Below, one piece after another: positions 9,574-46,627 of a DNA stretch of 64,000 bases; within the stretch, counting starts at the first letter, position 1; every line of letters starts with the position of its first letter. A model generated the notes under the pieces. That model made no database searches and was not told where the DNA came from. It worked only from the letters and a program-made list of their open reading frames with translations. Both the position numbers and the translations under genes were made by a program. The stretch lies in NCBI GenBank assembly GCA_963783385.1, contig CAWANJ010000009.1, positions 64,001 to 128,000 on the forward strand, written 5' to 3'. The DNA comes from an uncultured Gemmatimonadales bacterium. Its GTDB lineage: Bacteria; Gemmatimonadota; Gemmatimonadetes; Palauibacterales; Palauibacteraceae.

Positions 9574-9894
9574 GCGCGGGCGCATTCCCTGGAGGCGCGC
9601 CACGAGGCGGATCGAACCCAGGGGAGGAAGGCGTCCGTGCGGTTCTCCCGGCGTCGGGGGTGGCTCGTGTTGGCGCCTCCGGTCGCTCCCGGAGGACCGC
9701 CCCGCGGGAGCGCGAAACGGCGAGAAACTCTCGGTCGAAGCTAGCTGGGAAGACCGGGCCTCGCAACGAGTCGCGGGCCCCGGAGCGTCACAACGTCGGC
9801 CTCCATCCGGGGTGGATGTCCCGGCCCGGGAGAACGGTGGGGCGGCTTTGCGACACGGCCCGCACCCGGAACACGCGCTCCAGCAGCTCCGCCC

Positions 9895-12240: not shown

Positions 12241-12302
12241 GGGGGATCCTCTCGCGGGCGTGCACAGGGGTCGCGCGGAGCGGTGGGCCGCGCCGCGGGC
12301 TC

Positions 12303-12322
12303 ATTCATGAAAAATTCATGAA
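12303..12322. promoter_or_regulatory. Putative OmpR/PhoB-family operator, ATTCATGAA x2 with an 11-bp period
   Basis: ATTCATGAA-aa-ATTCATGAA lies about 60 bp upstream of the receptor start, directly after the two-component genes. Confidence 0.6.
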
Positions 12323-12369
12323 CGGGAGGATAGAGGACGGGCGCAGGACGGGCAAGTCGGGGTCGACGG

Positions 12370-13827: not shown

Positions 13828-13831
13828 GGGA

Positions 13832-14539
13832 TCAGCGACCGGCGTGCGCGCCGCCCGGGCCCTCGCCGCCCGCTTCCAGCGCGTAGCCGACCCCGTGGTG
13901 GGTGACGAGCAGCGGCTCCTCCTCCCCCTCGTCGATCTTCCGGCGCAGTCGGCTGGCGTACACGTCGATGACGTTGGAGTGGGCCTGGCTGTCCTCCCAC
14001 ACGTGCGCCATGAGCTCGTCGCGGGTGACCACCCGCCCGGCGTGGCGCGCCAGGTAGAGGAGGAAGGCGAACTCGCGGGCCGTGAGCTCGATGGTACGGC
14101 CGCCCCGGCGCACCGAGCGGCCGGGCGCGTCGATCGTCAGGTCGCCGACCCGGAGCGCAGCGTCCGCGCCCGCCTCGTCGCCACGTCGCCGGGTGAGGGC
14201 GCGCAGACGGGCCACGAGCTCCCCGAAGTCGAACGGCTTGGGGAGGTAGTCGTCCGCGCCCGCGTCGAGGCCCGCGATGCGGTGCTCGACCGCGTCGAGG
14301 GCGGTGAGCATGAGGATCGGTACCCAGTTCCCGGCTTCCCGCAGCTCGCGGCACACCTCGAGGCCGTCCCGGCCGGGGAGGAGGATGTCGAGGACGACGC
14401 AGTCGTAGTCGACCGCGCCGGCCATGGCCACGGCCTCGTCCCCGTCGGCGGCCTCCTCGACCTCCCAGCCGGCCTCGCGCAGCCCCCGCGCCACGGAGGT
14501 GCGGAGCTGGCGGTCGTCCTCGACGAGCAGGATGCGCAT
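13832..14539 (-). CDS. OmpR-family response regulator
   Basis: MRILLVEDD, LDILLP, GADDYLPKPF and winged-helix motifs LTAREF and NVIDVY. Confidence 0.95.
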   Translation of the reverse strand: MRILLVEDDRQLRTSVARGLREAGWEVEEAADGDEAVAMAGAVDYDCVVLDILLPGRDGLEVCRELREAGNWVPILMLTALDAVEHRIAGLDAGADDYLPKPFDFGELVARLRALTRRRGDEAGADAALRVGDLTIDAPGRSVRRGGRTIELTAREFAFLLYLARHAGRVVTRDELMAHVWEDSQAHSNVIDVYASRLRRKIDEGEEEPLLVTHHGVGYALEAGGEGPGGAHAGR

Positions 14540-14601
14540 GAGGTGAAGGGTACGGAGCGGGGCGGGGCGTGTCGATCGTGCGACGCGCTCCGCGCCGGGT
14601 C

Positions 14602-17953: not shown

Positions 17954-18154
17954 ACGCGGCTCCCTTGAGGTACCGTAGATTGGCCGGGTCGGGTGGGGGC
18001 ACGATGCGGCCGAGAGGCCGAAGGGGGCAAGCGGCGAACCGCCGGCCTCCGCGGCTTCCGGAGGCCGCTTCGCGGCCGTAGCTTACGGCGGAGACCCACC
18101 TTCCTTCGCCCCGCCTCGACGGGGCTCGTCCGCACCACCGAACGGGAGCGCCGC

Positions 18155-19672
18155 ATGGACCGCATACTGATCGGCAAGGGCGAGGGGCCCGTCTACCTGC
18201 TGGCCCCGTACGGGAACCGGCACGGACTCGTGGCGGGCGCGACCGGGACCGGAAAGACCGTCTCCCTCCTGGTGATGGCCGAGGGCTTCTCGCGTCTGGG
18301 CGTCCCCGTGGTGATGGCGGACGTCAAGGGCGACGTGGCGGGTCTGGCGATGCCCGGCACGCCGAACCCGAAGATCGACGAGCGGGCGGCGAGCATTGGA
18401 ATGGAGGACTGGGCGCCCGAGGGGAGCCCGGTCCTGTTCTGGGACCTGTACGGGAAGGCGGGCCATCCCGTGCGCACGACGATCAGCGAGATCGGCCCCA
18501 CGCTCCTGGCCCGCATGCTGGAGCTCAACGACACGCAGGAGGGCGTGCTGGAGGTCATGTTCCGGCTGGCCGACGAGCAGGGGCTCCTCCTCCTGGACAT
18601 GGACGACCTCCGGGCCCTGCTCGGCTACGTGGCCGAGCACCGCAAGGAAGTCTCGGAGCACTACGGACTGGTGGCCGGCGCCTCGATCGCGGCCATCCAG
18701 CGGTCCCTCCTGGCCCTGGACCGGGAGGGCGGCACGGAGTTCTTCGGAGAGCCGGCGCTGGAGCTCGCCGACCTGATGCGCACGGACCTGTCGGGCCGCG
18801 GCGTGATCAGCGTCCTGTCGGCAGACCAACTCATCCTCAAGCCCCGGCTGTACTCGAGCTTCCTCCTGTGGCTCCTCTCCGAGCTGTTCGAGCAGCTCCC
18901 GGAAGTGGGCGACCAGGACCGGCCGAGGCTGGTGTTCGTGTTCGACGAGGCGCACCTGTTGTTCGACGACGCGCCGCCCGCCCTGCGTCAGCGGGTCGAG
19001 CAGGTGGTGCGGATCATCCGATCCAAGGGGCGTGGGCGTCTACTTCTGCTCCCAGTTCCCCGACGACGTGCCCGACGAGATCCTGGGACAGCTGGGGAAC
19101 CGGATCCAGCACGCGCTGCGCGCCTACACGCCGCGCGACCAGAAGGCGGTGAAGACGGCGGCCGAGACCTTCGTGGCCAATCCGAACTGGACGTGGCCGA
19201 AGCCATCGGACAGCTCGGCGTGGGGGAGGCGCTCGTCTCGACCCTACAGGAGAAGGGCGTGCCCATGCCCGTGCAGCGAACCCTCATCTGCCCGCCGCGC
19301 TGCCGCATGGGCGCGATCACCGACGAGGAGCGCGCCGCGGTCCGTACGCGGAGTCCGGTCGGGGCGAAATACGACACGCCCGTGAACCGCGAGTCGGCCT
19401 ACGAGAAGCTGGCGGAGCGGGCCGAGGAGAAGGCGGCGCAGGCGCCCCCGCCGGTGGCCGGGGGCCGCGCCGGGGCGGCTGGCGGCGAGGCGGCCCGGGC
19501 CGGGAAGGATCCGGCCCGGAGCTCGCTCGGCGACATGCTGTGGGGGACCACCCGCCGCCAGGGGATGGTCGAGACCATGGCCAAGCAGGCGGCGCGAACG
19601 GTGGGAAGCCAGGTCGGGCGGCAGATCCTGCGCGGGGTGCTGGGAGGGATCCTGGGAGGGTCCAGGCGCTAG
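18155..19672 (+). CDS. DUF853/YjgR-family HerA-like ATPase with two compensating indels (about 19028 and 19186)
   Basis: [15 protein letters not shown] (Walker A) and [10 protein letters not shown] (Walker B). The conserved GVYFCSQ..D and [11 protein letters not shown] segments lie in the alternate frame 19032-19185. Confidence 0.9.
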
Positions 19673-19708: not shown

Positions 19709-22126
19709 TCACTTCCAGTGCATCCACTTTGTCGCCCACGAGGTGATCCCCAGGTGGCGCTTGGCCATGATGACCGGGCCTTCGATCCGGGCCGCCACGT
19801 TCTCGGGCACGCTGCCGAACACCAGCTGCTGCAGGATGCCCTCCCGGGTCGCGCCGAGCACGGTGAGGTCGTGCTGCCGGGCTTCGTCGATGAGAGCCTG
19901 GGCGATGTCGGCACCCTCGATCAGCCTCACCTTGACGGGGATCCCCGCCACCTGCTCCCGCGCCCGGTCCAGGCGCGCCGTGGCTTCGGCCCGGGCGTTC
20001 TGGTCCGCGTCGGGCGGAACCACGGTCACCAGATGGAGCATGGCCTCCCGCGAGCGGGCCACCGAGGCCGCCACCTCCGCTGCCAGGACCGCGTGCGGGC
20101 CCCCGGCCAGCGGCGCCAGGATCGAACGGACGTGCCCCTGGGCCCGTGAGGCGACCTTCTCGACGAGCACGTCGCAGCGGGCCCGGGTGATGATCCGATC
20201 CAGGTTGCTGCCCAGGACGAACTCGGTCCGCCGCGAACGGCCCCGCCAGCCCACGAGCACGGCGTCGGCCTCCGTCTGCTCGATCGTGTTGAGGATGGCC
20301 TGGGACACGTCGTGCCCGATCTTGACGGTCCCGCTCACCGGCACGTCGGGAGCTTCGCCCTCGGCGTACTCGGTGACTTCGTCCACCAGCGTCCAGTGCT
20401 CGTCGACGAACCTCCGCCCCTCCTCGAGCGGCGTCTGCCGGGGGACCGTGACGATCGCCATGAGAAGGATCTCCGCGTCCCGGTCTCGCGCCACGTCGAT
20501 GGCCGTGCGGACCAGCTGGCGCGCGTGGGCCGGGTTGGCGATCGGCACCAGCAACCGCCGCGCCCGACCCGCCATCGCCTGCTTGGTGACCACGCTGGGG
20601 GTCTCGGCCTCCATGCGGGCCAGCTCCCGGCCCTCCACGTACGCGTAGTAGACGGCCACCCCGAGGACGAACCAAGCCGCCATGACCGTCAGGGCGACGA
20701 AGCCTTCCGAGCCGGAACCGAGTCCCGGTGTGAGCCCGAGGGAGCTGAGGAGGAACGGCGTCAGGACGAGCTGGAGCAGGATGGCCAGCAGCGGCGTGAC
20801 CGGTACGAACGGGACCCGGAAGGGGCGCTCCAGCTCCGGCCGGTTCCGGCGCATGGCGATGAGCGCCACGTTCACCATCGAGAACAGGAGGATGAACATC
20901 ACCGACGAGGAGGCCGCCACGCTCTCGATCGGCAGCGTCATGGCCATCACGGCGATGAGGGCCGAGGAGGCGATGATGGCCACGTGGGGCGCCCGCGTGA
21001 GGGCGTGGATCGAGGACATCCCGTCCGGGAGGAGCTTGTCCCGGCTCATCGAGAAGGCGATGCGCGAGGACGCGTACAGGGTCGCGTTCAGGGCGCTCAT
21101 GGTGGCGGCCAGGCCGGCGATGAGGAGGAGGGGGAGCCCGTAGGGCATGAACTGCCCCGCCGCCTGGATGATTCCCATCTCGCCCAGGTAGCCCAGCACC
21201 TGCCACGTGGTGATGCCCACCTGTCCCGTGAGTCCCGCCAGCCCGAGGAGGTGCGGGTTCACTTCGATGCCGCCGATGGCGGCGAACGCCACCAGGACGT
21301 AGATGGGCACGACCACCACGAGGGAGTAGAAGATGGCCTTCGGGATGTTGCGGGCCGGGTCGATGATCTCTTCACCCGACTGGACGATGATGTCGTAGCC
21401 CTCGAAGGCGACGTAGGTGAAGCCCATCGCTGCGAGCACGCCGCCCATCCCGGTCGCGAAGAACCCGCCTCCCGCCAGGAACTTGGTCGTCCAGCCAGGC
21501 TCGCGGATCGTGGCCGCGGTGCCGAAGCCGATGAACAGGCCGAGGATGAGGATCTTGACGCTGGTGACGACGATGCCGGCCTTCCCGGTCTCCTCGGCCC
21601 CCCGGTAGTTCACGTAGGCGAAGAGCGCGACCACGAGACCGGCCAGGATCTTCTCCCAGGCGTGGCGGCTCATGCCCAGGAAGTGGAGGCCCTCCGTCCC
21701 CCCGAAGAACAGGATGCCGATGAAGGCCGTGAAGAAGGAGCCGAAGGTGACGGCGTACAGGGCGCAGGCCACGGCCTGGGCGAACCAGTTGGTCCAGCCG
21801 GTATAGAAGCCCAGCGGCCGGGGCAGGGACTCGGACACCCAGTTGTAGGCGCCCCCCGAGCGCGGGAAGCTGGCCCCGAGCTCCGCGTAGGCCATGGCCG
21901 TGAGGAAGGCCACGGCGGCGTTCAGGGCGAAGGCGACCAGGAGCGCCGGGCCCGCCAAACCCGCGGCGAAGCCGGTGAGGGCGAACACGCCCGCCCCGAT
22001 CATCGCCCCGATGCCGATGAACGTGACGCTGACCAGGCCCATGTCCCGGGAGAGCTCTCCCTCCCGGGGCGCCCCCGCTTCAGGGCGCTCGCCCGCCTCC
22101 CCGCCTGCTGCGTCCGGGCTCACCAT
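19709..22126 (-). CDS. APC amino-acid permease fused to two universal stress protein (USP) domains
   Basis: IGAMIGAGVF, YAELG, AFEG and ERPFRVP permease motifs. USP motifs LLVPIANP, VLGSNLD, ILAPLAGGPH and FGSVPE. Confidence 0.9.
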   Translation of the reverse strand: MVSPDAAGGEAGERPEAGAPREGELSRDMGLVSVTFIGIGAMIGAGVFALTGFAAGLAGPALLVAFALNAAVAFLTAMAYAELGASFPRSGGAYNWVSESLPRPLGFYTGWTNWFAQAVACALYAVTFGSFFTAFIGILFFGGTEGLHFLGMSRHAWEKILAGLVVALFAYVNYRGAEETGKAGIVVTSVKILILGLFIGFGTAATIREPGWTTKFLAGGGFFATGMGGVLAAMGFTYVAFEGYDIIVQSGEEIIDPARNIPKAIFYSLVVVVPIYVLVAFAAIGGIEVNPHLLGLAGLTGQVGITTWQVLGYLGEMGIIQAAGQFMPYGLPLLLIAGLAATMSALNATLYASSRIAFSMSRDKLLPDGMSSIHALTRAPHVAIIASSALIAVMAMTLPIESVAASSSVMFILLFSMVNVALIAMRRNRPELERPFRVPFVPVTPLLAILLQLVLTPFLLSSLGLTPGLGSGSEGFVALTVMAAWFVLGVAVYYAYVEGRELARMEAETPSVVTKQAMAGRARRLLVPIANPAHARQLVRTAIDVARDRDAEILLMAIVTVPRQTPLEEGRRFVDEHWTLVDEVTEYAEGEAPDVPVSGTVKIGHDVSQAILNTIEQTEADAVLVGWRGRSRRTEFVLGSNLDRIITRARCDVLVEKVASRAQGHVRSILAPLAGGPHAVLAAEVAASVARSREAMLHLVTVVPPDADQNARAEATARLDRAREQVAGIPVKVRLIEGADIAQALIDEARQHDLTVLGATREGILQQLVFGSVPENVAARIEGPVIMAKRHLGITSWATKWMHWK

Positions 22127-22250
22127 AGCCGCAACGATAGGCCCGTCGGACGCCTGCGGCCAGCGCGACGCGGGCCCGTCGACCTGGCCGCGCTCCCGAG
22201 GAGCGTCGCGAGCGTCCCGCCTCTCTGGCGTGGGGGGTCCGCACATTGGG

Positions 22251-22380
22251 GAGCGTACGATCCGTCGGTAGCGGAACGGGCCGGAGCGGACCCGCGTTGG
22301 TGCGGTGGGCGCCACCATGGCATCTTCGGCCACTTGCGAAGTGGCACCCGCACTCTGACGCGTGAGCGTCGGGCGGCGTG
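22251..22380 (+). repeat. Direct repeat R2, left copy
   Basis: 111/130 identical and ungapped against 33353-33482. Confidence 0.92.
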
Positions 22381-22663
22381 CCGACGACCCCGGCTGCTTG
22401 CACCCTTTCTCACAACCAAATTGTTCACACGTCTGCATTTAGTGACGCGGTCCCGCACCGATCGGCGCGCCGGCTCGGCGGAGGCCGGCGCGAGTGCCAA
22501 CCGCGCGCAGACTGGACTTTGCGGCCCTCAATCCCTTCCGGGCACGACTCTTCCACCCCACGACGCGCCTTTGCGGCTCTTGACGTCGCCGCGTACCGCC
22601 GGGCAGCGTCGCACGGGCGTCCGCGTGACACCCGTTTTTTCTAAATATCTGTTTGCATTCAGC

Positions 22664-22791: not shown

Positions 22792-25377
22792 ATGCGTGGG
22801 TGTGTGGTTGAGAAGATCCGACTCGTGTCGCGGTGTGCGCTCATTGCGGGCGCCTCCCTCGCGTTCAGGGCCCCGCCCGCGCGGGCCCAGGGTGCGATCA
22901 CCGCCTCGCTGGTGACGCCCAACCCGACCCCGTACGTGTCCGACCTCCAGACCCGGCCGAGCTGGGTCATGCTCACGGTGACCAACTCGAGCGGGGAGGA
23001 CGTGCGGGCGCAGGTCACCGCCTCGCTGAGCCGCAGCGGCGGAGACGTGCTGGTGGCGACGCTCGGCCCGGCGCCGGCGCCGTTCATGACGATTCCGGGC
23101 AACGCGGCGGCCCCCGCGACGACGGTGATCACGGCGCCCCGGCTGGCCCCGTGGAGCCAGTTCGCCTATACGGGGGAGGCCGGCCAGCAGATCCACGACA
23201 CGGGCCGGCTGCCGGATGGGGACTGGACGCTGTGCGTCACCCTGACGGGCCTCGTGGGCACTCAGACCCAGCGGCCCCTGCCCGACGTGACGGCCTGCTC
23301 GACCTTCATCGTCCGCTACCCCGAGGCTCCCCAGCTCCTGCTTCCCACGAACGGCAGCGACCTCACGCTTTCGACGCCCGTGTTCCAGTGGGCCCCGGCC
23401 ACGGGCGTGGACGGGGCGTCCTATCGCTTCCGCGTCGTCGAGATGATCCGTGGGCAGACGCCGCGCGAGGCGGTGGAGGCCGACCGGCCCGTGCTGGAGA
23501 CGACCCTGTACCGGCAGACGGCGCTGGTGTATTCGCCGGCCGCCTACCCGCTGCGGGCCGGAGCCTGCTACGCGTGGCAGGTGCAGTCCGTCAAGCTCCA
23601 GGGGAGCGACGTGCAGCCGATCCTGGCCCCGGTGGGCACGAATCAGGGACGCAGCCAGATCTTCACGTTCTGCTACCGTCCGCCCCACGTGGCCCAGCTC
23701 CCCGACTCGCTGCCGTCCGACACGACCGCGGGGCCGGGTATCGCGCTCCGGCTGCCGGCGATGGGCGGATCCGGCGGCGGAGGGCCTCCGGCGTACGGCT
23801 CCCGAGCGCGCGGTCCGGGCGCGGGTCTCCAGGCGTCCCAGGGGGCGCCGGCGCCGATCACCGCCACGGGCGACATTACCGCGTACGGCGAGCTGTACGG
23901 CCTGTCCGGCACCGGGGGGCAGCCGGCCCGACCAGACCAGACCGGGCGGATCCAGGTCAACACCACCCTGTCCATGGCGAACGGCCTCGTGCAGGTCCCC
24001 CTCCAGGCCCTCGTCTCCACCGACCAGGTCAGCTTCCGCCAGGAGATCGACCGGCTCGGGGTCAGCCCGACCTGGCGCGATTACACCCTCCACGCGGGCT
24101 ACTACACGCCCCGCTTCACCGACCTGACGCTGTCCGACGCCACCCTGCTGGGCGGGGGCGTCGAGGGGCACCCGGGCGGACTCCGCTTCTCGGCCGGCTA
24201 CGGCCGCGCGCGCCGCTCCATCGCGCCCGACTCCGGTCAGCTCGTGCAGCCCGAATACAGCCGCGTCATGGGCGTGGGCCGGGTGGGCTGGGAGGCACCC
24301 TCGGGGCTCCTGGCCGAGTTCACGGTGGTGAGCGCCCGGGACGACCCGAGGTCCCTGGGGCTGTTCGGGGACACGACCTCGGCGGCCTCACCGCAGGAGA
24401 ACCTGGTCCTCGGCCTCCACGGCAAGGCGCCCATCGCCGAACGGCGCCTGTGGCTCGAGGTCGAGGGGACGCGCTCGACGTACAGGGCGGACCGGCGGGC
24501 TATGGGGGACGCGACGGCCGACGTGGCCGGCTCGGTGGGGCTCACCTGGCAGGTGCCGACGTGGTCGGCCGGCGGGAAGGTGACCTACGTCGGGCCGGGC
24601 TACCACGCGCTCGGCAACACCCAGCTCCAGTCGGACCAGGTGCGCTACGAGGCCACCGGGCAGCTCCACGAGGGGACGGTCTCCCTGGGGCTCCAGGCCG
24701 GGGTGCAGCAGAACAACCTGGACCACACGCTGCAGAGCACGACCAAGCTTCGCGGGATCTACAACTTCACCCTGAGCTGGCAGGCCACGCAGCAGTTCGG
24801 CCTGGACGGCAGCGCCAGCAACATCGTGAACGACGTGCAGAGCACCGACCCCATGCTGGCGCTCAAGAACGTGAACCGCTCCTTCGTGCTCACCCCCCAC
24901 GTGGCCTTCCAGACCGGGCAGGCGCAGAATGTCCTCACCGCATCGGGCACGTGGCAGACGGCCGACAACACGTCGCCCGGCATCACGGGGCTGGAGGACA
25001 CGCGCACGGGGAGCGCCATGCTCGCCTACACGGTGAGCTTCCCGTCCGGGGTGTCGCTCACCGCGACGGGTACCTTCACACAGGTCGAGGTGGACTCGCT
25101 GAAGACGAACCTGACCACGCTGTATCCGGCGCTCTCCTTCCCGCTCGTCCAGGGTCGCCTCAACACGATGCTCGGCCTGCAGTGGACGTGGAGCGGAATC
25201 GCGGGCTCGTCCTACGATCATGAGGTGTACCCGCAGCTCAACGCGTCCTTCGCGGTGTCGCCGCGCCAGCAGGTCACCCTGCAGCTCTCCCACCGGCACT
25301 ACGCCTACGGCGACGCCATGCCGGGCGCGACGTTCAACGAGAACCAGGGGAGCCTGACCTGGAAGTACACGTTCTGA
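22792..25377 (+). CDS. Secreted protein: TANFOR-like/Ig-like N-terminal module plus outer-membrane beta-barrel
   Basis: Signal peptide ending ARA-Q. Motifs LPDGDWTLCV, PVFQWAP, YAWQVQ and NQGRSQIFTF. About 500 aa of amphipathic beta-strands ending LTWKYTF (terminal Phe). Confidence 0.75.
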   Translation: MRGCVVEKIRLVSRCALIAGASLAFRAPPARAQGAITASLVTPNPTPYVSDLQTRPSWVMLTVTNSSGEDVRAQVTASLSRSGGDVLVATLGPAPAPFMTIPGNAAAPATTVITAPRLAPWSQFAYTGEAGQQIHDTGRLPDGDWTLCVTLTGLVGTQTQRPLPDVTACSTFIVRYPEAPQLLLPTNGSDLTLSTPVFQWAPATGVDGASYRFRVVEMIRGQTPREAVEADRPVLETTLYRQTALVYSPAAYPLRAGACYAWQVQSVKLQGSDVQPILAPVGTNQGRSQIFTFCYRPPHVAQLPDSLPSDTTAGPGIALRLPAMGGSGGGGPPAYGSRARGPGAGLQASQGAPAPITATGDITAYGELYGLSGTGGQPARPDQTGRIQVNTTLSMANGLVQVPLQALVSTDQVSFRQEIDRLGVSPTWRDYTLHAGYYTPRFTDLTLSDATLLGGGVEGHPGGLRFSAGYGRARRSIAPDSGQLVQPEYSRVMGVGRVGWEAPSGLLAEFTVVSARDDPRSLGLFGDTTSAASPQENLVLGLHGKAPIAERRLWLEVEGTRSTYRADRRAMGDATADVAGSVGLTWQVPTWSAGGKVTYVGPGYHALGNTQLQSDQVRYEATGQLHEGTVSLGLQAGVQQNNLDHTLQSTTKLRGIYNFTLSWQATQQFGLDGSASNIVNDVQSTDPMLALKNVNRSFVLTPHVAFQTGQAQNVLTASGTWQTADNTSPGITGLEDTRTGSAMLAYTVSFPSGVSLTATGTFTQVEVDSLKTNLTTLYPALSFPLVQGRLNTMLGLQWTWSGIAGSSYDHEVYPQLNASFAVSPRQQVTLQLSHRHYAYGDAMPGATFNENQGSLTWKYTF

Positions 25378-28300
25378 TGGGGGGGCGCGTGCTGATGGGG
25401 CTGATGGGACTGATGGGGCGGACGGCGGCGGGCGCGCGGGCGCGCGGGCGCACGATCGCCCCCGCGGGGCTCGCGTTGGTGGCGCTCGCGGCCGCGAGCG
25501 CACTCCCGGGCGGGCCGTCGACGCTGGAGGCCCAGCAGCCCACGATCACGGTGAGCGTGACCGTGCCGCAGCCCTCGGCCGACTGGCAGGCGTGGAGCAC
25601 GAGCCCGTCCATCGCCATGGTCGTGCTCCAGACCACCCTGCGGCAGCCGATCGCGGTGACCTCCTCCTTCAGGCTCCTCAAGGACGGTCAGCCGCTCGGC
25701 GAGGTGCCGGGCAACATCCAGCAGCTCCCCGCCGGGAGCCAGATCCTCAGGACACCGCAGCTCGCCGCATGGAGCCGCATGCGGTGGAGCGACATCGGGG
25801 CCTCCGTGCAGCGCAGCGGAACGCTGCCGGCCGGCGCCTACCAGCTGTGCCTGGACATCATCCCGCCACCGCCGAGCGCGGACATGTCCATTCGTCTCAT
25901 GACCATCCACCGGTGCGCGAGCTTCACGCTGACGGCTCCGAAGGTCCTGTCCACGCCGCCCATGACCGTCAACCTGCCGCCGCCCCACCTGATCGCGCCC
26001 GCCAGCCGATCCGAGTCGCGGCTGCCGCAGCCGACCTTCCAGTGGACGCCCGTGGTGTCGCGCGACCACCCGCGCCCGACCTACGTGCTGCGCATCGCCG
26101 AAATGCTCCCCGGGCAGACGCCCGAGCAGGCGCTGAACGCCGGTCGGCCCCTCCTGGACCGCGAGCTGATCGGGCGCACGACCTTCCCCTACCCGGCCTC
26201 GGCCCCGAAGCTCGAGCCCGGCAAGACGTACGCGTGGCAGGTGCAGGCGCTGGCCATGCCGAGGGCCGAGGCGGGCGGCGTGAAGCCGCTCGGCATGAAT
26301 CAGGGACGGAGCGAGATCTACACCTTCCGCCGACCGCCGGTGCGGGTGGCGCGGCAGAAGCCGCAGCCGACGGGTCCCACGGCGAAGCCCGGCCTCCTGT
26401 ACGACGCCGCGCTGTCCGGTCGGCTCCTGTATACGTTCCAGCCCAACGGCGTACCGAAGCCCCGGCGCGTGTCCACCTACCTGGGCCAGCCTCCGACGGG
26501 GACGATCTTCGAGATGCAGGGCCAGCCGGGCGGGGGGCACCCGGTCGGCGGCGGGAAGACGGGTGGCCAGCAGGGCGGCCAGGGGGCCGGCGACCAGTCG
26601 GCGCCGTCCGGCGGGCCGGTGCATCTCCAGGACGCTCCGCACACGGACCCCCTCGCGGGCGTGACCGTGCGCCTCCTCGTGCATTACCGGACGGGCGACC
26701 GGTGGGTGCGCGGCGGGACGCTGGCGGCGGGCGGCAAGACGTACACGGACAACGGCAAGGTGGTGGCCAGCGCCCGCACGGCGGATGACGGTCGGTTCAC
26801 CTTCTTCTTCCACGACGACCTGCCGACGGGCCTCATCGCCCTGCACACGACGGTGTCCAGCGGGAGCGGCGAGTTCGGCTTCCACGAGAGCGGCGCGAAC
26901 CTGGCCCGCTTCTACACCCTCGAGGTCGGGGACCCGCACTACGCGAGCCCCTCCGACGAGCTCGAGAAGGGGCAGGGGGGCACCGGCGACGTGGGCACGC
27001 TCGTGGCCCTGGTGCGGAGTTACCGGCTGCAGGTCCGGGTCACACGGGCGGGCACGAAGGCCACGAAGACGGGCCTGCGGGTGCAGCTCCTCCGCCCGTT
27101 CCGGGCCGCCGGCGTGCCCGCCAACGAGGGCGACGCGCCGACCCCTCGCGGGAAGTACGGACTGTTCGAGATCATCGGGCAGGGCGTCACGGGCAACGAC
27201 GGCACCGTGACCTTCCGCCACCTGGTCAAGAACGTGGGTCCCGCCGACCGTTACTCGGTGCGGGTGTCCAGCGACCCCAACAACGTCAACGCGCGCTACT
27301 ACCCGGCGTCCGTCCCGGTCAGCCATTCGATGCCGCTCGATGATCCCGAGGGTTGGGACGATGCCGTGTTCAACGAGGGCTACAGGTCCGACCGGGTCTA
27401 CCGGGCCGACGTGCCCGTGTCCCCGCAGCCCCCGGAGTACTTCGGGACGGTGATCCGGGCCGACACCAGGAAGCCGGTCCCCGAGGCGCTCATGGTCCTG
27501 GTGCAGCACGGCGTGGGAGGCTCGATGATTTTGCATGCCGTGAAGCCTTCGGACGACGGGCAGTTCGTCATCAAGGGCTTCCAGGTGAACCGGAAGTACG
27601 TGGTGTACGTGCACGCCCCCGGCTTCCGTCCCGACTCCAACGTGTTCATGCCGGACTCGGGGGTGGCCACCCACTTCGACCACCAGCTCCGGCCCGACGC
27701 CACCGTGACGCTCTCCCTGGTGGACGAGAACGGGGCGCCCGTGCCGGGGCGGGTGCGCGTGGGCAGCGGAGCCCAGGTCGAAGCACAGCCGGTGTACGGG
27801 AACGACCAGGGCCAGGAGCTGCGGGCGGGCGCCGGTGGAGTGGCGTGGTACACGCGCGGCTCCGGCGGCGCGACGGGTGGCCAGACATCGTCGTCCGGTC
27901 AGACTCCGACGTCCGGCCAGGCGCGACGGGCGGGGACGTCGACCTCGGCGGGCGGCATGACGCGGACCGGGAGCGCGGCGCAGGCCGCGAGCTCCGGCCT
28001 CGTGCACCTGCAGGCGTGGCGCGTCACCCTCCCGGCCAACTCGGGAACCCAGACCGTGCACGTGGACGCGGGGCCCGATTACTTCCCGACCGACACCACC
28101 CTGACGATCCCGAAGGGGGCCTCGGACCTCGGCCGGGCGGTCGTCTACCTGCGCATGCGGCGGCTGCACGTGAAGGTGGTCGCCCTCGAGAAGGCGCCCG
28201 CTCCGCCAGCGGGCCGGAGGCGGCCGACCCGGGGCGGCATGCGCATCGTGCACGTCACCAGCGGCGCCTCGGAGTCCCCGATCGAGGGGGCGGTCGTGAG

Positions 28301-31202
28301 CCTCCCGGACGAGCCCGGCCAGCTCTCGGCCACCACGGACGGCTCGGGAGACGTCACCTTCGAGTGGAAGGCGACCTCGCCCGACTCGATCGCGCAGGTG
28401 ACGGTCCGAATCGAGCCGCCGGCCGGCTCGGACTTCACGAACGCCTCCGCCCAGGTTCCGGTGCCCGAGAGCCGCACGCCCCGCACCTCGGTCCTGGGAC
28501 TGCTCCGGGGCGCCACCGTGCAGGGGACGGTGTACGCCGGCGCCGGCACGGACTCGATCGTGGCCGGGGCGCGGGTGTTCATCCCCGGGGCGGGCCCGGG
28601 CGGGACCGACCTGTCGGACTCGACGGACGCCAAGGGCCACTACGCCCTGCACGGAGCGCCGGCCGGGGCTCACTGGGTCCGGGCCGGGAAGGCGGGCTCG
28701 CACTTCACGGGTGACTCGGCCCGCGTGGCGGCGAAGGCGGGAGCGTCGGCGACGCAGGACTTCCACCTGACCGGGGTGGATGGCCTTCCCACGTCCCTCC
28801 TCGGCCTCGCGATCGAGGTGCAGAGCTACACGAAGACGGCGCAGGGCGCGGTCCTCAGCGGCCGGTTCACCGACGTGCCCGGCAACGACGCCTTCGCTCC
28901 CCGGACGCAGGGACTGACCCTGGCGTTCGACAGCGTGACCGTGACCGGCCAGGGCAAGGACGCCGCCCCGCCCGGCGGCACGGTGCACGTGGTCGACAGC
29001 GACCTGCCGCTCTCCCTGTATGGGACCTACCTGGTCCGGCAGCACGCGGAGGGCGGCCTGACGGTGGAGGACCGGGGGCAGGGGCAGGGCGCCGTGGTGG
29101 GTCCGGCGCAGCTCCTGTCGGGATCCTTCTCCCTGACCACGGCCGAGCTGACCTTCCGGGATTCACTCTTCCTCCTGTCACCCGGGGCGAGCGGCACGGC
29201 CGCCGCCCGGGTGGCCACGCTCGAGGCCGGCGGCGCCTCGCCGGCCCCTTCCGGCGGCTACGGGATCGGGACCTCGCAAGGGGGCGACGCCGGACTCACG
29301 CTGTACGGGTTCGGGGCCGACGCGGCGGCGGCCTCCTCGCGCCTGGCGCCCAAGGCGCTCACCCTCAATGCGACCCTCCACACGGCGATCCCGGGCGTGA
29401 AGGACCTGGCGATCCACGTGCCCGACCTCACGGTGACGCCCGGTCAGGGAGCGGGCGCCGGCCTGCAGCCGGCGAAGGGCGACCAGGCGCTGTCCCTGTC
29501 CCTGGGCGCGTGGACGCTGGAGTCGCCGAGCTGGTCCCTCGGCAAGGGGCGGCTGCACCTGGTGCAGGGCGTGGTGCGCGTGCCGATGATCCAGGGCCGC
29601 CCCAACAGCGACATCGACTTCCCGTTCACCGGCCTCGAGGTCACGCCCACCAGTCTCGAGGGCGGGAAGTTCGGAGGCGGCCCCCTCCTCCTGGGCGGGT
29701 TCGTGCCTCTCCAGGTGAAGGGCGGGGTCACCTTCGTGCGCGACACGCCGACGGGCCCATGGAAGCTATTCGGGGACGGCGGCACGATCGCGGCGCTCCC
29801 GGGCATGGCGTCCACCGACGAGATCCACGTGCAGAGCTTCGACTTCCTCTCCAACGGGAAGAAGAGCTTCTCGATGGAGCCGGGGACGTCGGTGCGGCTG
29901 TACGGCACGGGGGACCTGGCGATCTCGAACCTGGGGATCACCGAGTCGTCCGTGAGCTTCGCGGGTGGGCTCGACCTCCACGTCCCGGGCCTGGACCCGC
30001 AGGCCGTGGTCGTCGACTACACGCGTCCCGCGTCCGGCCACGCGCCGACCTTCAAGTTCAACCCGATCGACATCCAGCCCTTCGACATCGGTGGCGCGAA
30101 GGTGTCGGTGCACCAGGGGACCCTCGACGCCTCCGGCTTCCAGGGCAATGGGACCGTGTCGGTGCCGGGCAAGTTCACCGTCGCCTCGCACTTCACTCGC
30201 TCGCCGCTCGGTCCGAACCAGAAGATCGAGGCGCTCCCGCTCCCGCACGCGACCCTCGATGTGGGACAGGTGGCCATCTCGAAGCTCCAGGGCGGGGCGA
30301 AGGTGGCGGCAGGCAAGTGGGCCACGGACTACCAGGGCCACATGGACGTGGGCGGCCAGGTGTCCGGCGACGTCACGATCGGCGTGGAGGGGACCGACGT
30401 CACCGCGGGGACGGGCGGGCTGGCGGTCAAGAACATTCCGACCCCGTTCGGGAACATGGCGATCACCATGAACTTCCCTGAGCAGCGGCTCGAGGGCTCG
30501 GTCCAGATGGACAAGGACATCGCCGCCGGCGCGCACGTGAAGGGCACCACCGAGATGGTCATCAGCGGCAAGCCTTCCGACCGCTATTGGTACCTGTTCA
30601 CCGGAGCCGCGTTCTCGCTGAAGACGCCACACATGTCGGGCACGGCGGCCCTCCTGATCGGCTCGGCGACCCTGAAGGCGGATCTCCTGGCCCGCTACGC
30701 CAAGTACGGCCGCCGGCCGGTGCCGGCCCAGTTCCACGTGATCAACGGATTCTTCATGGAGGGCGAGGTGTCGATCCCGGTGCCGATCTGTCCCAACGGC
30801 GCCTTCGACATCGGGGTGGCTAGCGTCGAGGTGTGGTGCAACGTGTGGGGCGACGTACGGCTGGGGGCCAATTTCCAGCAGGCCAACACCTACTTCGTGG
30901 GCGTCGGGGCGGGGATCGACGCGGGCATCAAGGGCGGGGTGGGCATGGGGCTGTGCGTGCACGTGGCGGCGGAGGTGAAGGCGGGCCTGGACGGGGAGGG
31001 CGCCTACCGGAGCGATGGCGCCTGGTACGCCCGGGGCGACGCCAACCTGGACCTGAACGGGAGCGCCTCCTACGGGGTCGGCCTGGACGACGTGTGCCTG
31101 GACCACACGACCAGCGTCCACATCGGGCTGGGCGCGGAGGCCCAGCTCGGCTACGACTGGGCCCGGAACGTGGGGCCGCACGCGAAGGTGTACTTCCGAT
31201 GA
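25377..31202 (+). CDS. 1941-aa secreted protein: TANFOR-like module, carboxypeptidase-regulatory-like beta-sandwich domains and a long beta-rich C-terminus
   Basis: TGATG overlap with the upstream gene. Motifs LPAGAYQLCL, PTFQWTP, YAWQVQA and NQGRSEIYTF. Repeats of the type TADDGRF, SDDGQF, TDGSGDV and TDAKGHY. Strong GC3 bias. Confidence 0.8.
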   Translation: MGGRVLMGLMGLMGRTAAGARARGRTIAPAGLALVALAAASALPGGPSTLEAQQPTITVSVTVPQPSADWQAWSTSPSIAMVVLQTTLRQPIAVTSSFRLLKDGQPLGEVPGNIQQLPAGSQILRTPQLAAWSRMRWSDIGASVQRSGTLPAGAYQLCLDIIPPPPSADMSIRLMTIHRCASFTLTAPKVLSTPPMTVNLPPPHLIAPASRSESRLPQPTFQWTPVVSRDHPRPTYVLRIAEMLPGQTPEQALNAGRPLLDRELIGRTTFPYPASAPKLEPGKTYAWQVQALAMPRAEAGGVKPLGMNQGRSEIYTFRRPPVRVARQKPQPTGPTAKPGLLYDAALSGRLLYTFQPNGVPKPRRVSTYLGQPPTGTIFEMQGQPGGGHPVGGGKTGGQQGGQGAGDQSAPSGGPVHLQDAPHTDPLAGVTVRLLVHYRTGDRWVRGGTLAAGGKTYTDNGKVVASARTADDGRFTFFFHDDLPTGLIALHTTVSSGSGEFGFHESGANLARFYTLEVGDPHYASPSDELEKGQGGTGDVGTLVALVRSYRLQVRVTRAGTKATKTGLRVQLLRPFRAAGVPANEGDAPTPRGKYGLFEIIGQGVTGNDGTVTFRHLVKNVGPADRYSVRVSSDPNNVNARYYPASVPVSHSMPLDDPEGWDDAVFNEGYRSDRVYRADVPVSPQPPEYFGTVIRADTRKPVPEALMVLVQHGVGGSMILHAVKPSDDGQFVIKGFQVNRKYVVYVHAPGFRPDSNVFMPDSGVATHFDHQLRPDATVTLSLVDENGAPVPGRVRVGSGAQVEAQPVYGNDQGQELRAGAGGVAWYTRGSGGATGGQTSSSGQTPTSGQARRAGTSTSAGGMTRTGSAAQAASSGLVHLQAWRVTLPANSGTQTVHVDAGPDYFPTDTTLTIPKGASDLGRAVVYLRMRRLHVKVVALEKAPAPPAGRRRPTRGGMRIVHVTSGASESPIEGAVVSLPDEPGQLSATTDGSGDVTFEWKATSPDSIAQVTVRIEPPAGSDFTNASAQVPVPESRTPRTSVLGLLRGATVQGTVYAGAGTDSIVAGARVFIPGAGPGGTDLSDSTDAKGHYALHGAPAGAHWVRAGKAGSHFTGDSARVAAKAGASATQDFHLTGVDGLPTSLLGLAIEVQSYTKTAQGAVLSGRFTDVPGNDAFAPRTQGLTLAFDSVTVTGQGKDAAPPGGTVHVVDSDLPLSLYGTYLVRQHAEGGLTVEDRGQGQGAVVGPAQLLSGSFSLTTAELTFRDSLFLLSPGASGTAAARVATLEAGGASPAPSGGYGIGTSQGGDAGLTLYGFGADAAAASSRLAPKALTLNATLHTAIPGVKDLAIHVPDLTVTPGQGAGAGLQPAKGDQALSLSLGAWTLESPSWSLGKGRLHLVQGVVRVPMIQGRPNSDIDFPFTGLEVTPTSLEGGKFGGGPLLLGGFVPLQVKGGVTFVRDTPTGPWKLFGDGGTIAALPGMASTDEIHVQSFDFLSNGKKSFSMEPGTSVRLYGTGDLAISNLGITESSVSFAGGLDLHVPGLDPQAVVVDYTRPASGHAPTFKFNPIDIQPFDIGGAKVSVHQGTLDASGFQGNGTVSVPGKFTVASHFTRSPLGPNQKIEALPLPHATLDVGQVAISKLQGGAKVAAGKWATDYQGHMDVGGQVSGDVTIGVEGTDVTAGTGGLAVKNIPTPFGNMAITMNFPEQRLEGSVQMDKDIAAGAHVKGTTEMVISGKPSDRYWYLFTGAAFSLKTPHMSGTAALLIGSATLKADLLARYAKYGRRPVPAQFHVINGFFMEGEVSIPVPICPNGAFDIGVASVEVWCNVWGDVRLGANFQQANTYFVGVGAGIDAGIKGGVGMGLCVHVAAEVKAGLDGEGAYRSDGAWYARGDANLDLNGSASYGVGLDDVCLDHTTSVHIGLGAEAQLGYDWARNVGPHAKVYFR

Positions 31203-33373
31203 GGACAGGGCGGGGGTCAGCGCGGGGGATCGGCGTGTCGCACGCGGCCGGGCGCGGAGCAGGGCGCACGGCCGCGCGCCGCAGGCGCGTGACCGCGGCG
31301 GGGATTGCCCTCGTCGGGGCCCTGGCCGCGGGCGCGGCGGCCCCGGCCCGACTCGCCGCCCAGAGCGCCACGGCCGCGCGGGCGGGCGACACGATCGCGT
31401 TCGCGAGCCCGCGTGGCGCGTACGTGTGGATGAAGGGCACCGTGGTGTCGGCGGCCCACCCCGTGGGCGGGGTGGTGGCGCACCGGCTGGAGCGCTCGCG
31501 TCCGGGGGCATCCTGGGGAAAGGTGGCCGACGTGAGCGCCGTGCCCGACGCGCGCAGCTTGTTCGCGCGGCTCGACTCGGCCACGAGCCGCGCCGTCGTC
31601 CGATCGCTGGGCCAGAAGGACGAGGCGAGCGCCTGGAACTACATCGTCCGGAACCCCAGGGCCGACTCCCTGGCGGCGATCCTCGGAAACGACGACGTGC
31701 GTCTGGCGCTCGGCCTCTACGGTCTCGATCCGTCGCCCCGGAACGGCGAGACGTGGCGCTACCGGGTGAGCGACGTGGACGCGGACGGGGCCGTCTCCCA
31801 CCCCGTGGTGTCGAACCCGGTGAGCTTCCCGGCCCGGGCGAGCTTCGATTCCGTACATGTGGCCGACAGCCGGGGCGCCGACTCGGTGGTCGTGGTCCGC
31901 TGGTACGTGGGCGACGTGGGAACCCGCGCCAAGACGGTCGAGATCTGGCGGCGCGCGGGACGGACGGGCGAGTTCGAGGAGGTCGACTCCGTGGCGGTCA
32001 GCATCCTGGCCGGGGACTCGCTCCTGGCGCGGAGCGAGGACCGCGACGTGACGCCGGGCGCGATGTACCAGTACTACGCGGTGCCGAGAGACCTGTTCTT
32101 CAACGTTGGCGCCCCCAGCGACACCGTGAGCGTGTACACGGTGCCGCTGGCGGGGGCCGTGCTCCCCGACTCGATCGAGGCTCGCGGCGTGGACACGCTC
32201 GGGATCGTGCTCACCTGGCGCGTGGCCGACCCGGACCGTATCCGCACCGTGCAGCTGTTCCGCTCGACCTCCCAGGACACGGGCTACGTCCAGATCGCCG
32301 AGCTCCCGCCCGCGACCGACCGGTTCGTGGATGCGCAGGTCGAGCCGATGAAGATGTACTACTACCGCCTCGGCATGACCGGCCTGCGCGGCACGGTTTC
32401 GCCGCGGACCGCGGCCGTTTTCGGCTACTACCGGCCCGCGCTCGCCCCGTCGCCGCCCCTGGCCGTGCGGGCCGACACCACGGCCGGAGGATTCCGGGTC
32501 GCATGGACCCCGGCGGGGGACCCCGACCTGTCGGGATACCGGGTGTACCGCACCGACGCCCCGGTGGACACGCTCACCGACGCGACGGCCATGCGGCTAG
32601 TCAGTCCCCTGCTCCCGCCCACCGACACCCTCTTCGTGGACAGCGCAGCCGGGCTCGGATCCGGACGCCAGTACACGTGGGCCGTGCGGGCCGTGGGCCC
32701 GGGGGGACTCGAGAGTGGCTACTCCAACCCCGCCTCCGCCTCGCGAACGTCCGTGGCGCCCGTCGCGGCTCCGACCGGACTGTCCGGCTACGCCGACGCC
32801 CGGGGGGTGGTCCTGGCGTGGACCGACGTGTCCCGGACGGACCCCCTGGTGGACGGCTACCTGGTGCTGCGGGAGGCGGCCGGCGCGGGCCGGGGCGAGC
32901 CGGACACGGCGCGGACCGGATCCGCCGGCAAAGCCGTGTCGAGCTGGGACACGCTCAACTCCCGGCCGCTGGGCCGGCTGGAGAACGGGTACCGGGACAC
33001 CACGGCCGTGCGGGGCGCGTGGCGCTATGCCGTCGTGTCCGTGCGCGTGGATGGCCAGCGGAGCGGTCCCTCCGCACCCGTGCGCGTGAGCCGGGAGCCC
33101 GCCCCGCCCCCGCCGCCGCCGGGCTTCCGCGTGCAGGCGGACAGCGACGGCATCGTCCTGGCCTGGGACCCGATGGCCGACAGCGCCGCCAGGGTGCGGG
33201 TGTACCGCTACGAGCGCGGTGGTCGGCCGGCGCGCGTGGCCGAGGTCGGCGCCGCCGCGCTCGAGTACCTGGACCGGGACGCGCGGCCGGGCCACCGGTA
33301 CTGGTACTACGTGGCCACGGTGTCCGCCGGCCTGGAGGGGCCGCGCAGCGAGGAGCGCACGATCCGGAGGTAG
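31199..33373 (+). CDS. Secreted multi-fibronectin type III domain protein
   Basis: ATGA overlap at 31199-31202 and a signal peptide ending LAA-Q. About five FN3 units with W...Y(R/K)xYR...D...YxYxV patterns. Confidence 0.85.
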   Translation: MRTGRGSARGIGVSHAAGRGAGRTAARRRRVTAAGIALVGALAAGAAAPARLAAQSATAARAGDTIAFASPRGAYVWMKGTVVSAAHPVGGVVAHRLERSRPGASWGKVADVSAVPDARSLFARLDSATSRAVVRSLGQKDEASAWNYIVRNPRADSLAAILGNDDVRLALGLYGLDPSPRNGETWRYRVSDVDADGAVSHPVVSNPVSFPARASFDSVHVADSRGADSVVVVRWYVGDVGTRAKTVEIWRRAGRTGEFEEVDSVAVSILAGDSLLARSEDRDVTPGAMYQYYAVPRDLFFNVGAPSDTVSVYTVPLAGAVLPDSIEARGVDTLGIVLTWRVADPDRIRTVQLFRSTSQDTGYVQIAELPPATDRFVDAQVEPMKMYYYRLGMTGLRGTVSPRTAAVFGYYRPALAPSPPLAVRADTTAGGFRVAWTPAGDPDLSGYRVYRTDAPVDTLTDATAMRLVSPLLPPTDTLFVDSAAGLGSGRQYTWAVRAVGPGGLESGYSNPASASRTSVAPVAAPTGLSGYADARGVVLAWTDVSRTDPLVDGYLVLREAAGAGRGEPDTARTGSAGKAVSSWDTLNSRPLGRLENGYRDTTAVRGAWRYAVVSVRVDGQRSGPSAPVRVSREPAPPPPPPGFRVQADSDGIVLAWDPMADSAARVRVYRYERGGRPARVAEVGAAALEYLDRDARPGHRYWYYVATVSAGLEGPRSEERTIRR

Positions 33374-37563: not shown

Positions 37564-37795
37564 GGCGGGACGGTCCGCGGCCGGGTCGCCGGACCAAGCG
37601 GCGCCGACTCTCGCGAATCACACGATGCGTGGTGATCTTCGACATCTTGCGAGGCCAACGCGAAGGGGCGAGACTTCGCGATCCCCGTGACGCAGGGGGT
37701 TCCGGCCCTCCCCTCACAGGCACGGAAGCTGAATTCCCTTCGCGTTCGATGCCCGGTTGCCGCCGTTCCAGCGTCTTCGATTCCGGAGTTCGTTC

Positions 37796-46456: not shown

Positions 46457-46627
46457 GCCAGTAATCCTGGACGGAGTGCGGGAGGGATCGCACCGGGCCG
46501 GTGGGACGCGGCCCGAGTCGGAAAAAGCGCGCGGAATATGGCCGGAGTCTCGGTGGTGGGCAAGCAATGCGGGCCCTGTTCGGGGGCCGGAGCGCGCCCG
46601 GGGCGTACCCGAGATTCCGAAACGGAC

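Follow-up and report, generated by a model that had tools for sequence, protein, structure and literature searches.

We analysed a 64,000-nucleotide stretch of contig CAWANJ010000009.1 (hereafter the window), from an uncultured Gemmatimonadales bacterium, and find that it carries an operon of three genes whose exported products form a real, conserved and uncharacterised system. Gene 1 (22792..25377, + strand; 861 amino acids (aa)) encodes a signal peptide, a two-domain N-terminal module, a disordered linker and a predicted large outer-membrane barrel. Gene 2 (25377..31202, +; 1941 aa) combines a signal peptide and a module of the gene 1 type with an Ig-like stalk containing Gly/Ser-rich linkers and a 790-aa C-terminal beta domain, and gene 3 (31199..33373, +; 724 aa counted from an ATG) encodes an exported protein with four FN3-like domains in its C-terminal part. 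Module and barrel are tied to each other by a pattern of fusion versus adjacency and by their co-occurrence across phyla and on plasmids. These ties, together with the gene logic of a related operon in Emticicia, point to a two-partner-like arrangement: we judge it an even call that the operon is a self-contained system that exports or displays a protein at the outer membrane, using uncharacterised parts, and we regard this functional model as plausible.

The three reading frames overlap at their junctions, with TGATG at 25375-25379 between genes 1 and 2 and ATGA at 31199-31202 between genes 2 and 3. These overlaps and the three protein lengths reproduce the original prediction, which had been made from the sequence alone; its suggestion of a Gemmatimonadota-like genome agrees with the source of the DNA. 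Third-position GC is 0.87-0.94 in all three frames, in a window of ~72% GC overall, as is typical of coding sequence. Read by eye, each protein appears to open with a hydrophobic, signal-peptide-like segment ending in A-x-A or AQ. Two translation starts are ambiguous: gene 2 has in-frame ATGs at codons 1, 7, 10 and 13 (25377-25415), and the longest open reading frame (ORF) of gene 3 begins at a GTG at 30833, upstream of the ATG, with homologues aligning only from residue 30-64 (range of possible starts, 30833-31400). The gene 3 signal region contains the stretch RRRR, so that export by the Tat route is possible.

The C-terminal part of gene 1 (23857..25374, +; aa 356-861) is predicted to form a large outer-membrane beta-barrel, as had been proposed from its strand-rich sequence and terminal Phe; the protein indeed ends in WKYTF. 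An AlphaFold2 model built from 19 sequences places ~25 long beta strands over residues 356-860, with a mean predicted local distance difference test score (pLDDT) of 71.8 and values of 80-94 across most of the C-terminal two thirds. A Foldseek search with this model returned 279 matches at E<=0.001, and the top-ranked matches are almost all outer-membrane barrels: the best targets are MtrB (6r2q_B, E 1.4e-9), FimD/PapC, LptD, SlpA and SprA, with porins and chitoporin far down the list. Between module and barrel lies a Gly/Pro/Ala-rich linker (23683..23856, +; aa ~298-355) that is modelled as disordered (pLDDT <50 at residues 299-353) and that varies in length among homologues, with long insertions in their alignment.

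The barrel family has no name. A word-index search of 5.8e9 proteins found 21 homologues of gene 1, the few named ones being called hypothetical protein, and 30 relatives of the barrel, and a PDB sequence search with the gene 1 alignment returned no match. In the ESM Atlas the barrel resembles 30 unnamed clusters of ~545 aa, most commonly from Bacteroidota (best three scores 0.97-0.98), and DUF6029 (0.92); we treat these matches as leads only. A terminal aromatic residue (F/W) and several motifs are kept in the cross-phylum barrel alignment (A7). The most conserved stretch of the family, 23857-24160 (aa 356-460; …STDQVSFRQ…SP.W…DATLLGGG.E), is modelled with a pLDDT of 40-87, below that of the less conserved C-terminal strands, and may represent a lumen or plug element rather than part of the barrel wall.

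As originally noted, the N-terminal module of gene 1 recurs in gene 2; it measures ~270 aa, and BLASTP aligns gene 1 aa 33-317 with gene 2 aa 54-340 at 29% identity over 302 columns (E 1e-29). An alignment of 19 module sequences resolves two sub-domains, D1 and D2. In gene 1, D1 (22888..23322, +; aa ~33-177) is a remotely TANFOR-like domain whose modelled beta strands suggest a beta-sandwich, with the motif W...G...TGxLPDGxYxL. A Cys pair flanks this motif in 10 of the 19 modules (window, L002, L003, L007-L009, L011 and L015, by the locus numbers introduced below), which are Gemmatimonadota sequences plus L015; the other nine have no conserved pair. D2 (23323..23682, +; aa ~178-297) is Ig/FN3-like and carries the motif PxLxxP...PxFxWxP...YAWxVQ...GxNxGxS. 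Its family matches among the 19 modules are weak, to Ig_Rha78A_N (8/19), DUF928 (5/19) and fn3 (4/19), so the predicted Ig-like domain behind a TANFOR-like part holds as a faint resemblance of D2 to Ig, FN3 and DUF928 domains; our search of the DUF928 literature found nothing relevant. The gene 2 copy (25536..26351, +; aa ~54-325) is a paralogue of the gene 1 module. A PDB sequence search with the module alignment gave a single match, at E 1.2.

We compared these sequences with TIGR02542 (T_forsyth_147), the NCBIfam model of TANFOR, which spans 145 positions and has a curated cutoff of 67 bits. The gene 1 module scores 11.8 bits (E 0.16) over profile positions 10-126, confined to D1, and the whole proteins of genes 1-3 give no match at E<=1. 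Four of the 19 module sequences match (best E 2.3e-4), as do 7/52 and 1/13 module-bearing relatives at E<0.01 (together 8/65; best 28 bits, E 1.7e-6), and the matches in relatives always fall in the same part of D1. No protein scored reaches the curated cutoff. Because sub-threshold matches recur and none attains the cutoff, D1 is probably a distant homologue of TANFOR, and by these scores the operon proteins lie outside TIGR02542 as curated. The TANFOR likeness first proposed thus stands as a weak, real signal in D1, and fails as membership of the family.

The module is widespread, and its placement is consistent. A profile search found 7,242 clusters (at 50% identity) at E<=0.001, 541 of them at E<=1e-30. 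Among the best 150 of the 7,242 clusters, 130 carry a near-complete module, which begins within the first 80 residues in 128/130, on proteins of 247-6580 aa; placed N-terminally on such diverse exported proteins, the module behaves like a leader. The same best 150 include six further clusters that carry the barrel and ~30 further ones that carry the gene 2 C-terminal domain, and of 50 module relatives scanned, 36 match no Pfam family at E<=1e-5. The placement is that of TANFOR: the module stands N-terminally on large exported proteins, and an FN3 gene adjoins. In an unrooted module tree, the Gemmatimonadota gene 1 and gene 2 modules form one clade (support 98/97) apart from all others, which makes a duplication of the module within this phylum likely, in a direction that an unrooted tree does not reveal.

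One scan of species-representative genomes yielded 20 loci (L001-L020). In all 11 Gemmatimonadota loci (L001-L011) the barrel, gene 2 and gene 3 families are adjacent, and a gene 3-like gene also stands beside the barrel in three of the four Bacteroidota plasmid loci described below; the expectation that the trio would recur elsewhere is thus borne out. The gene order is 1-2-3 in L001-L006 (Gemmatimonadales and relatives) and gene 2-gene 3-barrel in L007-L011; L007 retains the start/stop overlaps. Flanking genes are common only to the window and its 94%-identical relative L001 and within close subgroups, and since they differ beyond close relatives, the trio constitutes a conserved unit. The barrel carries a full module at its N-terminus in the window, in L001-L003 and in the eight non-Gemmatimonadota loci in which the barrel N-terminus lies on the contig. 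In L004-L006 the barrel is fused to D2 only, and in L007-L011 it has no fused module and the neighbouring gene 2 homologue carries one. Members of the family that consist of the barrel only span 503-578 aa in Gemmatimonadota, and those of the plasmid loci 565-614 aa. In L004 (10001-19810), the homologues of all three genes are split over several frames, which may reflect an assembly indel error or real decay.

The remaining nine loci (L012-L020) are labelled Eisenbacteria, Binatia, Limnocylindrales and Dormiibacterota. Here a module-barrel fusion, sometimes in tandem, follows a CARDB giant of 1,170-1,390 aa, itself conserved, in six of the seven assessable loci. We considered these giants as possible relatives of gene 2 and found them unrelated (profile-profile probability 0.35%). 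Three of the loci, L012, L015 and L019 (labelled Binatia, Limnocylindrales of Chloroflexota, and Dormiibacterota), encode proteins 75-83% identical to, or joined by very short branches with, those of the Eisenbacteria loci L018, L013 and L020. Given this near-identity, the three bin labels are perhaps wrong, and by sequence the non-Gemmatimonadota group may be Eisenbacteria throughout.

An independent collection of 72,556 plasmids contains the same combination in Bacteroidota. Searched by tblastn, gene 1 finds one record, from Persicobacter; the Persicobacter barrel as query finds four (Persicobacter, Emticicia, Runella and Bergeyella), and the Runella module as query returns the same four. 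We assigned module, barrel and gene 3-like genes in these loci with our own profiles and RefSeq product names. In Emticicia, a barrel (E 1.5e-39) precedes a 2,719-aa protein annotated 'HNH endonuclease' that bears the module at aa 42-288 (9e-16), and a SMI1/KNR4-family gene follows. By RefSeq annotation, the giant and the SMI1/KNR4 protein would be a polymorphic-toxin and immunity pair, the immunity role being our reading. Runella has a barrel (6e-29), a module-bearing giant (4.5e-15) and a gene 3-like protein (3e-32), and its next downstream giant is annotated with a type IX secretion system (T9SS) sorting domain. Persicobacter has a barrel (E 2.6e-46), a 1,560-aa giant, a gene 3-like protein (5e-35), two small ORFs and a module-bearing giant (7e-23).

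Further giants surround two of these plasmid loci. On Emticicia pEMTOL03 (L022), giant hypothetical genes at 7834-14955 and 26688-31800, in which we detected no module, flank the barrel-toxin-immunity unit, and an IS1 transposase separates the SMI1/KNR4 gene from the giant downstream of it. The Persicobacter locus (L021; CP012852.1, 1290391-1321389) belongs to a 1.58-Mb 'plasmid' record with only 2 annotated features and contains more giants (1,809+, 1,892 and 1,560 aa) in which no module is detectable; the last of these resembles the bodies of module-bearing proteins.

Gene 2 carries a CarboxypepD_reg domain (28515..28772, +; aa 1047-1132; PF13620, E 6e-14, 52.6 bits, in three stretches) ahead of an all-beta C-terminal domain (28824..31199, +; aa 1150-1941) that belongs to no known family. 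The C-terminal domain is 44-47% identical in relatives of the L007-L011 type and 30% identical in the most divergent, and the ~30 further clusters that carry it measure 1,700-2,380 aa. Four Cys residues lie in its last ~140 aa, two of them invariant and two conserved at >=90% in the relevant alignment (A3). The word index holds 18 relatives, one named carboxypeptidase-like regulatory domain-containing protein, and the ESM Atlas offers unnamed look-alikes (best score 0.91) that serve as a lead only. A PDB sequence search with gene 2 gave one match, at E 0.71, and neither gene 2 nor gene 3 shows internal repeats by BLAST.

The description of gene 3 as a chain of FN3 domains fits its C-terminal ~410 aa, which contain four FN3-like repeats (32144..33370, +; aa 316-724; segments S3-S6). 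Pfam fn3 matches two of six gene 3 segments (aa 413-517 and 635-724), and hhalign pairs S3-S6, S4-S5, S4-S6 and S5-S6 at probabilities of 74-97%, with S3-S4 at 32% and S3-S5 at 1.3%. The N-terminal half does not bear the description out, with no family assigned to aa 56-315.

We scanned genes 1-3 against Pfam and NCBIfam at E<=1 and found no match to POTRA, Omp85, two-partner secretion (TPS), autotransporter, usher, LptD, plug or T9SS sorting domains, in agreement with the original prediction, nor to a TonB-dependent receptor, TonB box, AsmA or DUF490; no SLH or peptidoglycan-binding domain was found in these scans. A type IX sorting domain (TIGR04183 or related) is likewise absent at E<=0.01 from 65 module relatives, and a literature search combining Gemmatimonadota and T9SS gave nothing relevant by title. 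Taken by class, types Va and Ve are distinguished by a 12-strand autotransporter or intimin-type family that finds no match here, where the model has ~25 strands; type Vb, by a POTRA/Omp85 barrel together with a haemagglutination-activity (TPS) domain on the client, neither of which is matched on genes 1 or 2; and the chaperone-usher class, by an usher sequence match and a PapD-like chaperone gene, the first missing from gene 1 and the second from among the neighbouring genes. No characterised system fits the three genes. None of the three outcomes named beforehand as counting against the original prediction has thus come about.

In the two-partner-like reading, gene 1 would be an outer-membrane barrel of ~24-26 strands from a nameless family, gene 2 a Sec-exported client recognised through, or held by, its N-terminal module, and gene 3 an exported FN3-type accessory protein made alongside the other two. 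In the lineage of the window the barrel comes with a flexibly tethered module copy, whereas the barrels of sister lineages have half a module or none; the client carries one throughout. We infer that the module engages the barrel and that the barrel serves to translocate or anchor the client, and likewise the side of the membrane on which each part lies and what gene 3 does. A pore for gene 2 and a scaffold or chaperone in gene 3, as first envisaged, are suggestions drawn from the linkage of the genes.

Type Vb systems, namely two-partner secretion and contact-dependent inhibition, comprise a TpsB/CdiB barrel, a TpsA/CdiA giant and a CdiI immunity protein. In common with two-partner secretion, a giant with a putative N-terminal recognition domain follows a barrel, and in Emticicia an immunity-type gene comes next; a Sec-dependent client and a small, self-contained operon are further shared features. 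Unlike two-partner secretion, the barrel is modelled with ~25 strands instead of 16 and has no POTRA/Omp85/TPS match, the leader is a pair of beta-sandwiches rather than a beta-helix and is copied onto the barrel, and there is an extra FN3 gene. The Emticicia operon thus has the same gene logic as contact-dependent inhibition with non-homologous parts. FimD/PapC ushers are among the best structural matches (template-modelling (TM) score 0.31-0.49 on target length) and likewise join a large barrel to attached beta-sandwich domains and handle Ig-like substrates, whereas the operon lacks an usher match, a plug in the barrel sequence, and chaperone or pilin genes. The best structural match is to MtrB of the MtrCAB system, in which a 26-strand barrel encloses a partner encoded next door; the operon has no haem motifs or cytochrome genes, and at 8% identity the likeness is in barrel size only.

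A wider proposal, which we hold tentatively and with distinctly less conviction than the reading of the operon itself, is that the barrel family is the dedicated translocon of an unrecognised pathway of Bacteroidota, Gemmatimonadota and Eisenbacteria whose substrates are marked by a TANFOR-type module. Such a pathway would be analogous to TPS and not homologous with it, would provide the export route of TANFOR toxins in place of or alongside T9SS, and would have as its barrels the ~550-aa proteins encoded upstream of TANFOR genes. TANFOR proteins are described as Sec-exported polymorphic toxins of Bacteroidetes (PMC7073777; Jana, Salomon and Bosis 2020), with Fn3, PKD, SprB and T9SS tails enriched near their genes; their export route is not established, T9SS being proposed speculatively (PMC7073777). 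The portions of that article consulted mention no export barrel for TANFOR, and in the papers found to use TANFOR as a whole word no barrel partner appears in titles or abstract openings.

We counted 48 rows of its Supplemental Data 1, from parts 1, 7 and 12 of 20 (PMC7073777). In 17 of these rows the operon has an upstream protein of 547-564 aa without a conserved domain, and 16 of the 17 have a signal peptide. The pattern is concentrated in part 12, where all 15 rows have an upstream domain-less protein of ~550 aa (14 with a signal peptide) and 12/15 also have a 641-671-aa protein downstream that is often FN3; such an upstream protein occurs in 2/18 rows of part 7 and 0/15 of part 1. Rows 1-13, in part 1, show a second operon type that recurs among TANFOR genes: the upstream gene encodes a PKD-repeat lipoprotein of ~450 aa, and the downstream product is exported, domain-less and 745-801 aa long. 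The 547-564-aa proteins match the barrel-only family members and the ~545-aa Bacteroidota look-alikes of the ESM Atlas in size, and are candidate barrels, a lead by size.

Set beside these TANFOR loci, the operon shares large Sec-exported proteins, an N-terminal domain right behind the signal peptide and adjoining FN3 genes; one TANFOR protein of the survey has a CarboxypepD_reg domain, and the part 12 order of a ~550-aa exported protein, a giant and a ~650-aa, often FN3, protein is that of the window (PMC7073777). It differs in its score below the curated cutoff, in its phylum, in the second, Ig-like sub-domain of its module, in the conserved gene 2 C-terminus without an immunity gene, and in a barrel that carries a copy of the module.

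Several observations weigh against the export or display reading and its extension to TANFOR. The gene 1 model has an overall predicted TM score (pTM) of 0.48, and its structural matches are generic, with TM 0.2-0.49 and 8-12% identity, so that they indicate a class of fold but no particular family. The proposed contact of the module with the barrel is read from gene linkage. The gene 2 and gene 3 families are missing from all nine loci L012-L020, where a gene 3 profile finds nothing even at E<=10, and the CARDB giant that partners the barrel there has no module, so that a module on the client is not universal. Emticicia has no gene 3-like gene at E<=0.01, and Bergeyella offers fragments only, with the module and a barrel fragment ~23 kb apart on a fragmented plasmid. 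In the TANFOR survey, 31 of the 48 rows have no such upstream gene, and Persicobacter sp. CCB-QB2 is credited with 0 TANFOR proteins by that survey's criterion (PMC7073777).

The main rival to a two-partner-like system is a purely structural complex of the envelope or cell surface, in which the barrel is an anchor (as SlpA is in Deinococcus), its module makes up a fibrous layer or adhesin together with gene 2, gene 3 is an FN3 strut and nothing is translocated. Much of gene 2 would suit this role, since the protein is all-beta, contains Ig-like, CarboxypepD_reg and bMG3-like domains, and ends in a C-terminal domain that is conserved and not polymorphic; SlpA is among the Foldseek matches of gene 1, partners in other phyla bear CARDB repeats of the adhesion type, and a weak likeness to an S-layer glycoprotein is seen in one module protein. 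The Emticicia partner fits less well, being annotated as a nuclease toxin next to SMI1/KNR4, and a toxin must leave the cell to act. The leader-like position of the module, at the very beginning of a wide variety of proteins, and the lack of any SLH or peptidoglycan-binding domain in our scans, also argue against a structural role, which we consider unlikely overall, if the strongest of the alternatives.

A Sus-like nutrient-capture complex, with the barrel as substrate channel and genes 2 and 3 as surface binding proteins, appears improbable. SusC/TonB-type receptors commonly have CarboxypepD_reg at their N-terminus, as does one in the window (9895-12240), single module proteins carry a SusE or a subtilase domain, and porins and chitoporin do occur, low down, among the barrel's Foldseek matches. 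The operon nevertheless shows no match to a plug, TonB box or TonB-dependent receptor and has neither a glycoside hydrolase nor SusD nor a regulator linked to it, and the toxin-immunity partner in Emticicia fits such a complex poorly.

Still less credible is the view that gene 2 is a polymorphic toxin of the TANFOR class and that gene 3 provides immunity to it or helps it. It draws on the remote TANFOR likeness of the module, on the 'HNH endonuclease' annotation of the Emticicia relative and on the enrichment of Fn3 genes beside TANFOR genes (PMC7073777). Gene 2, however, has no match to a toxin family in Pfam or NCBIfam at E<=1 and no variable C-terminal toxin with an immunity gene: its 790-aa C-terminal domain is conserved (30-47% identity, with the ~30 further clusters) and so not polymorphic, and the next gene encodes an exported 724-aa FN3 protein, unlike the small cytoplasmic immunity proteins. 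As the domain is conserved and no immunity-like gene lies behind it, gene 2 itself is probably not a toxin.

The least credible alternative is an envelope-spanning transporter of lipid or lipopolysaccharide (LPS) of the LptD/TamB kind, with a groove in the gene 2 C-terminus docking on the barrel: Foldseek ranks LptD chains first for the modelled C-terminus of gene 2 (pLDDT 67.8; E 1.3e-7, probability 1.0), and LptD recurs among the matches of gene 1, but a TM of 0.13-0.15 means no real superposition and led us to reject the LptD fold, no LptD, AsmA or DUF490 family matches, gene 2 has a cleavable-looking signal peptide, Ig-like domains and no inner-membrane anchor, and the toxin linkage in Emticicia fits poorly.

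The surroundings of the operon are otherwise those of an ordinary chromosome. Its 5' neighbour is a divergent gene (19709-22438, -; 909 aa) for an amino-acid permease joined with two universal-stress-protein domains; L001, a close relative, matches only 138 aa of this fusion. A MatE gene lies 107 bases 3' of the operon. Two genes upstream of the operon, a HerA-like ATPase gene stands alone (17993-19672, +; PF05872, E 3.4e-178). Two other exported proteins of the window are unrelated to the operon's families: a Big_2/TIG/Big_1 protein (37757-40384, +; 875 aa) and a DUF5117/DUF4953 Met-zincin (43913-46567, -; 884 aa). The rest of the window consists of housekeeping genes, we found no secretion machinery elsewhere in it, and each of the three families is present there in single copy. 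A consensus scan for promoters and terminators gave none of either, a result that is uninformative for this phylum.

Overall, our analysis gives a name to each of three large 'dark' protein families, of which the module alone accounts for 7,242 clusters at 50% identity, and it identifies a nameless barrel family that is genetically bound to TANFOR-like leaders, fused to them in some lineages and adjacent in others. The open question of how TANFOR proteins are exported now has a testable barrel candidate. Gemmatimonadota use the same hardware for a conserved, probably non-toxic giant, a hint that it may serve more widely in constructing the cell surface.

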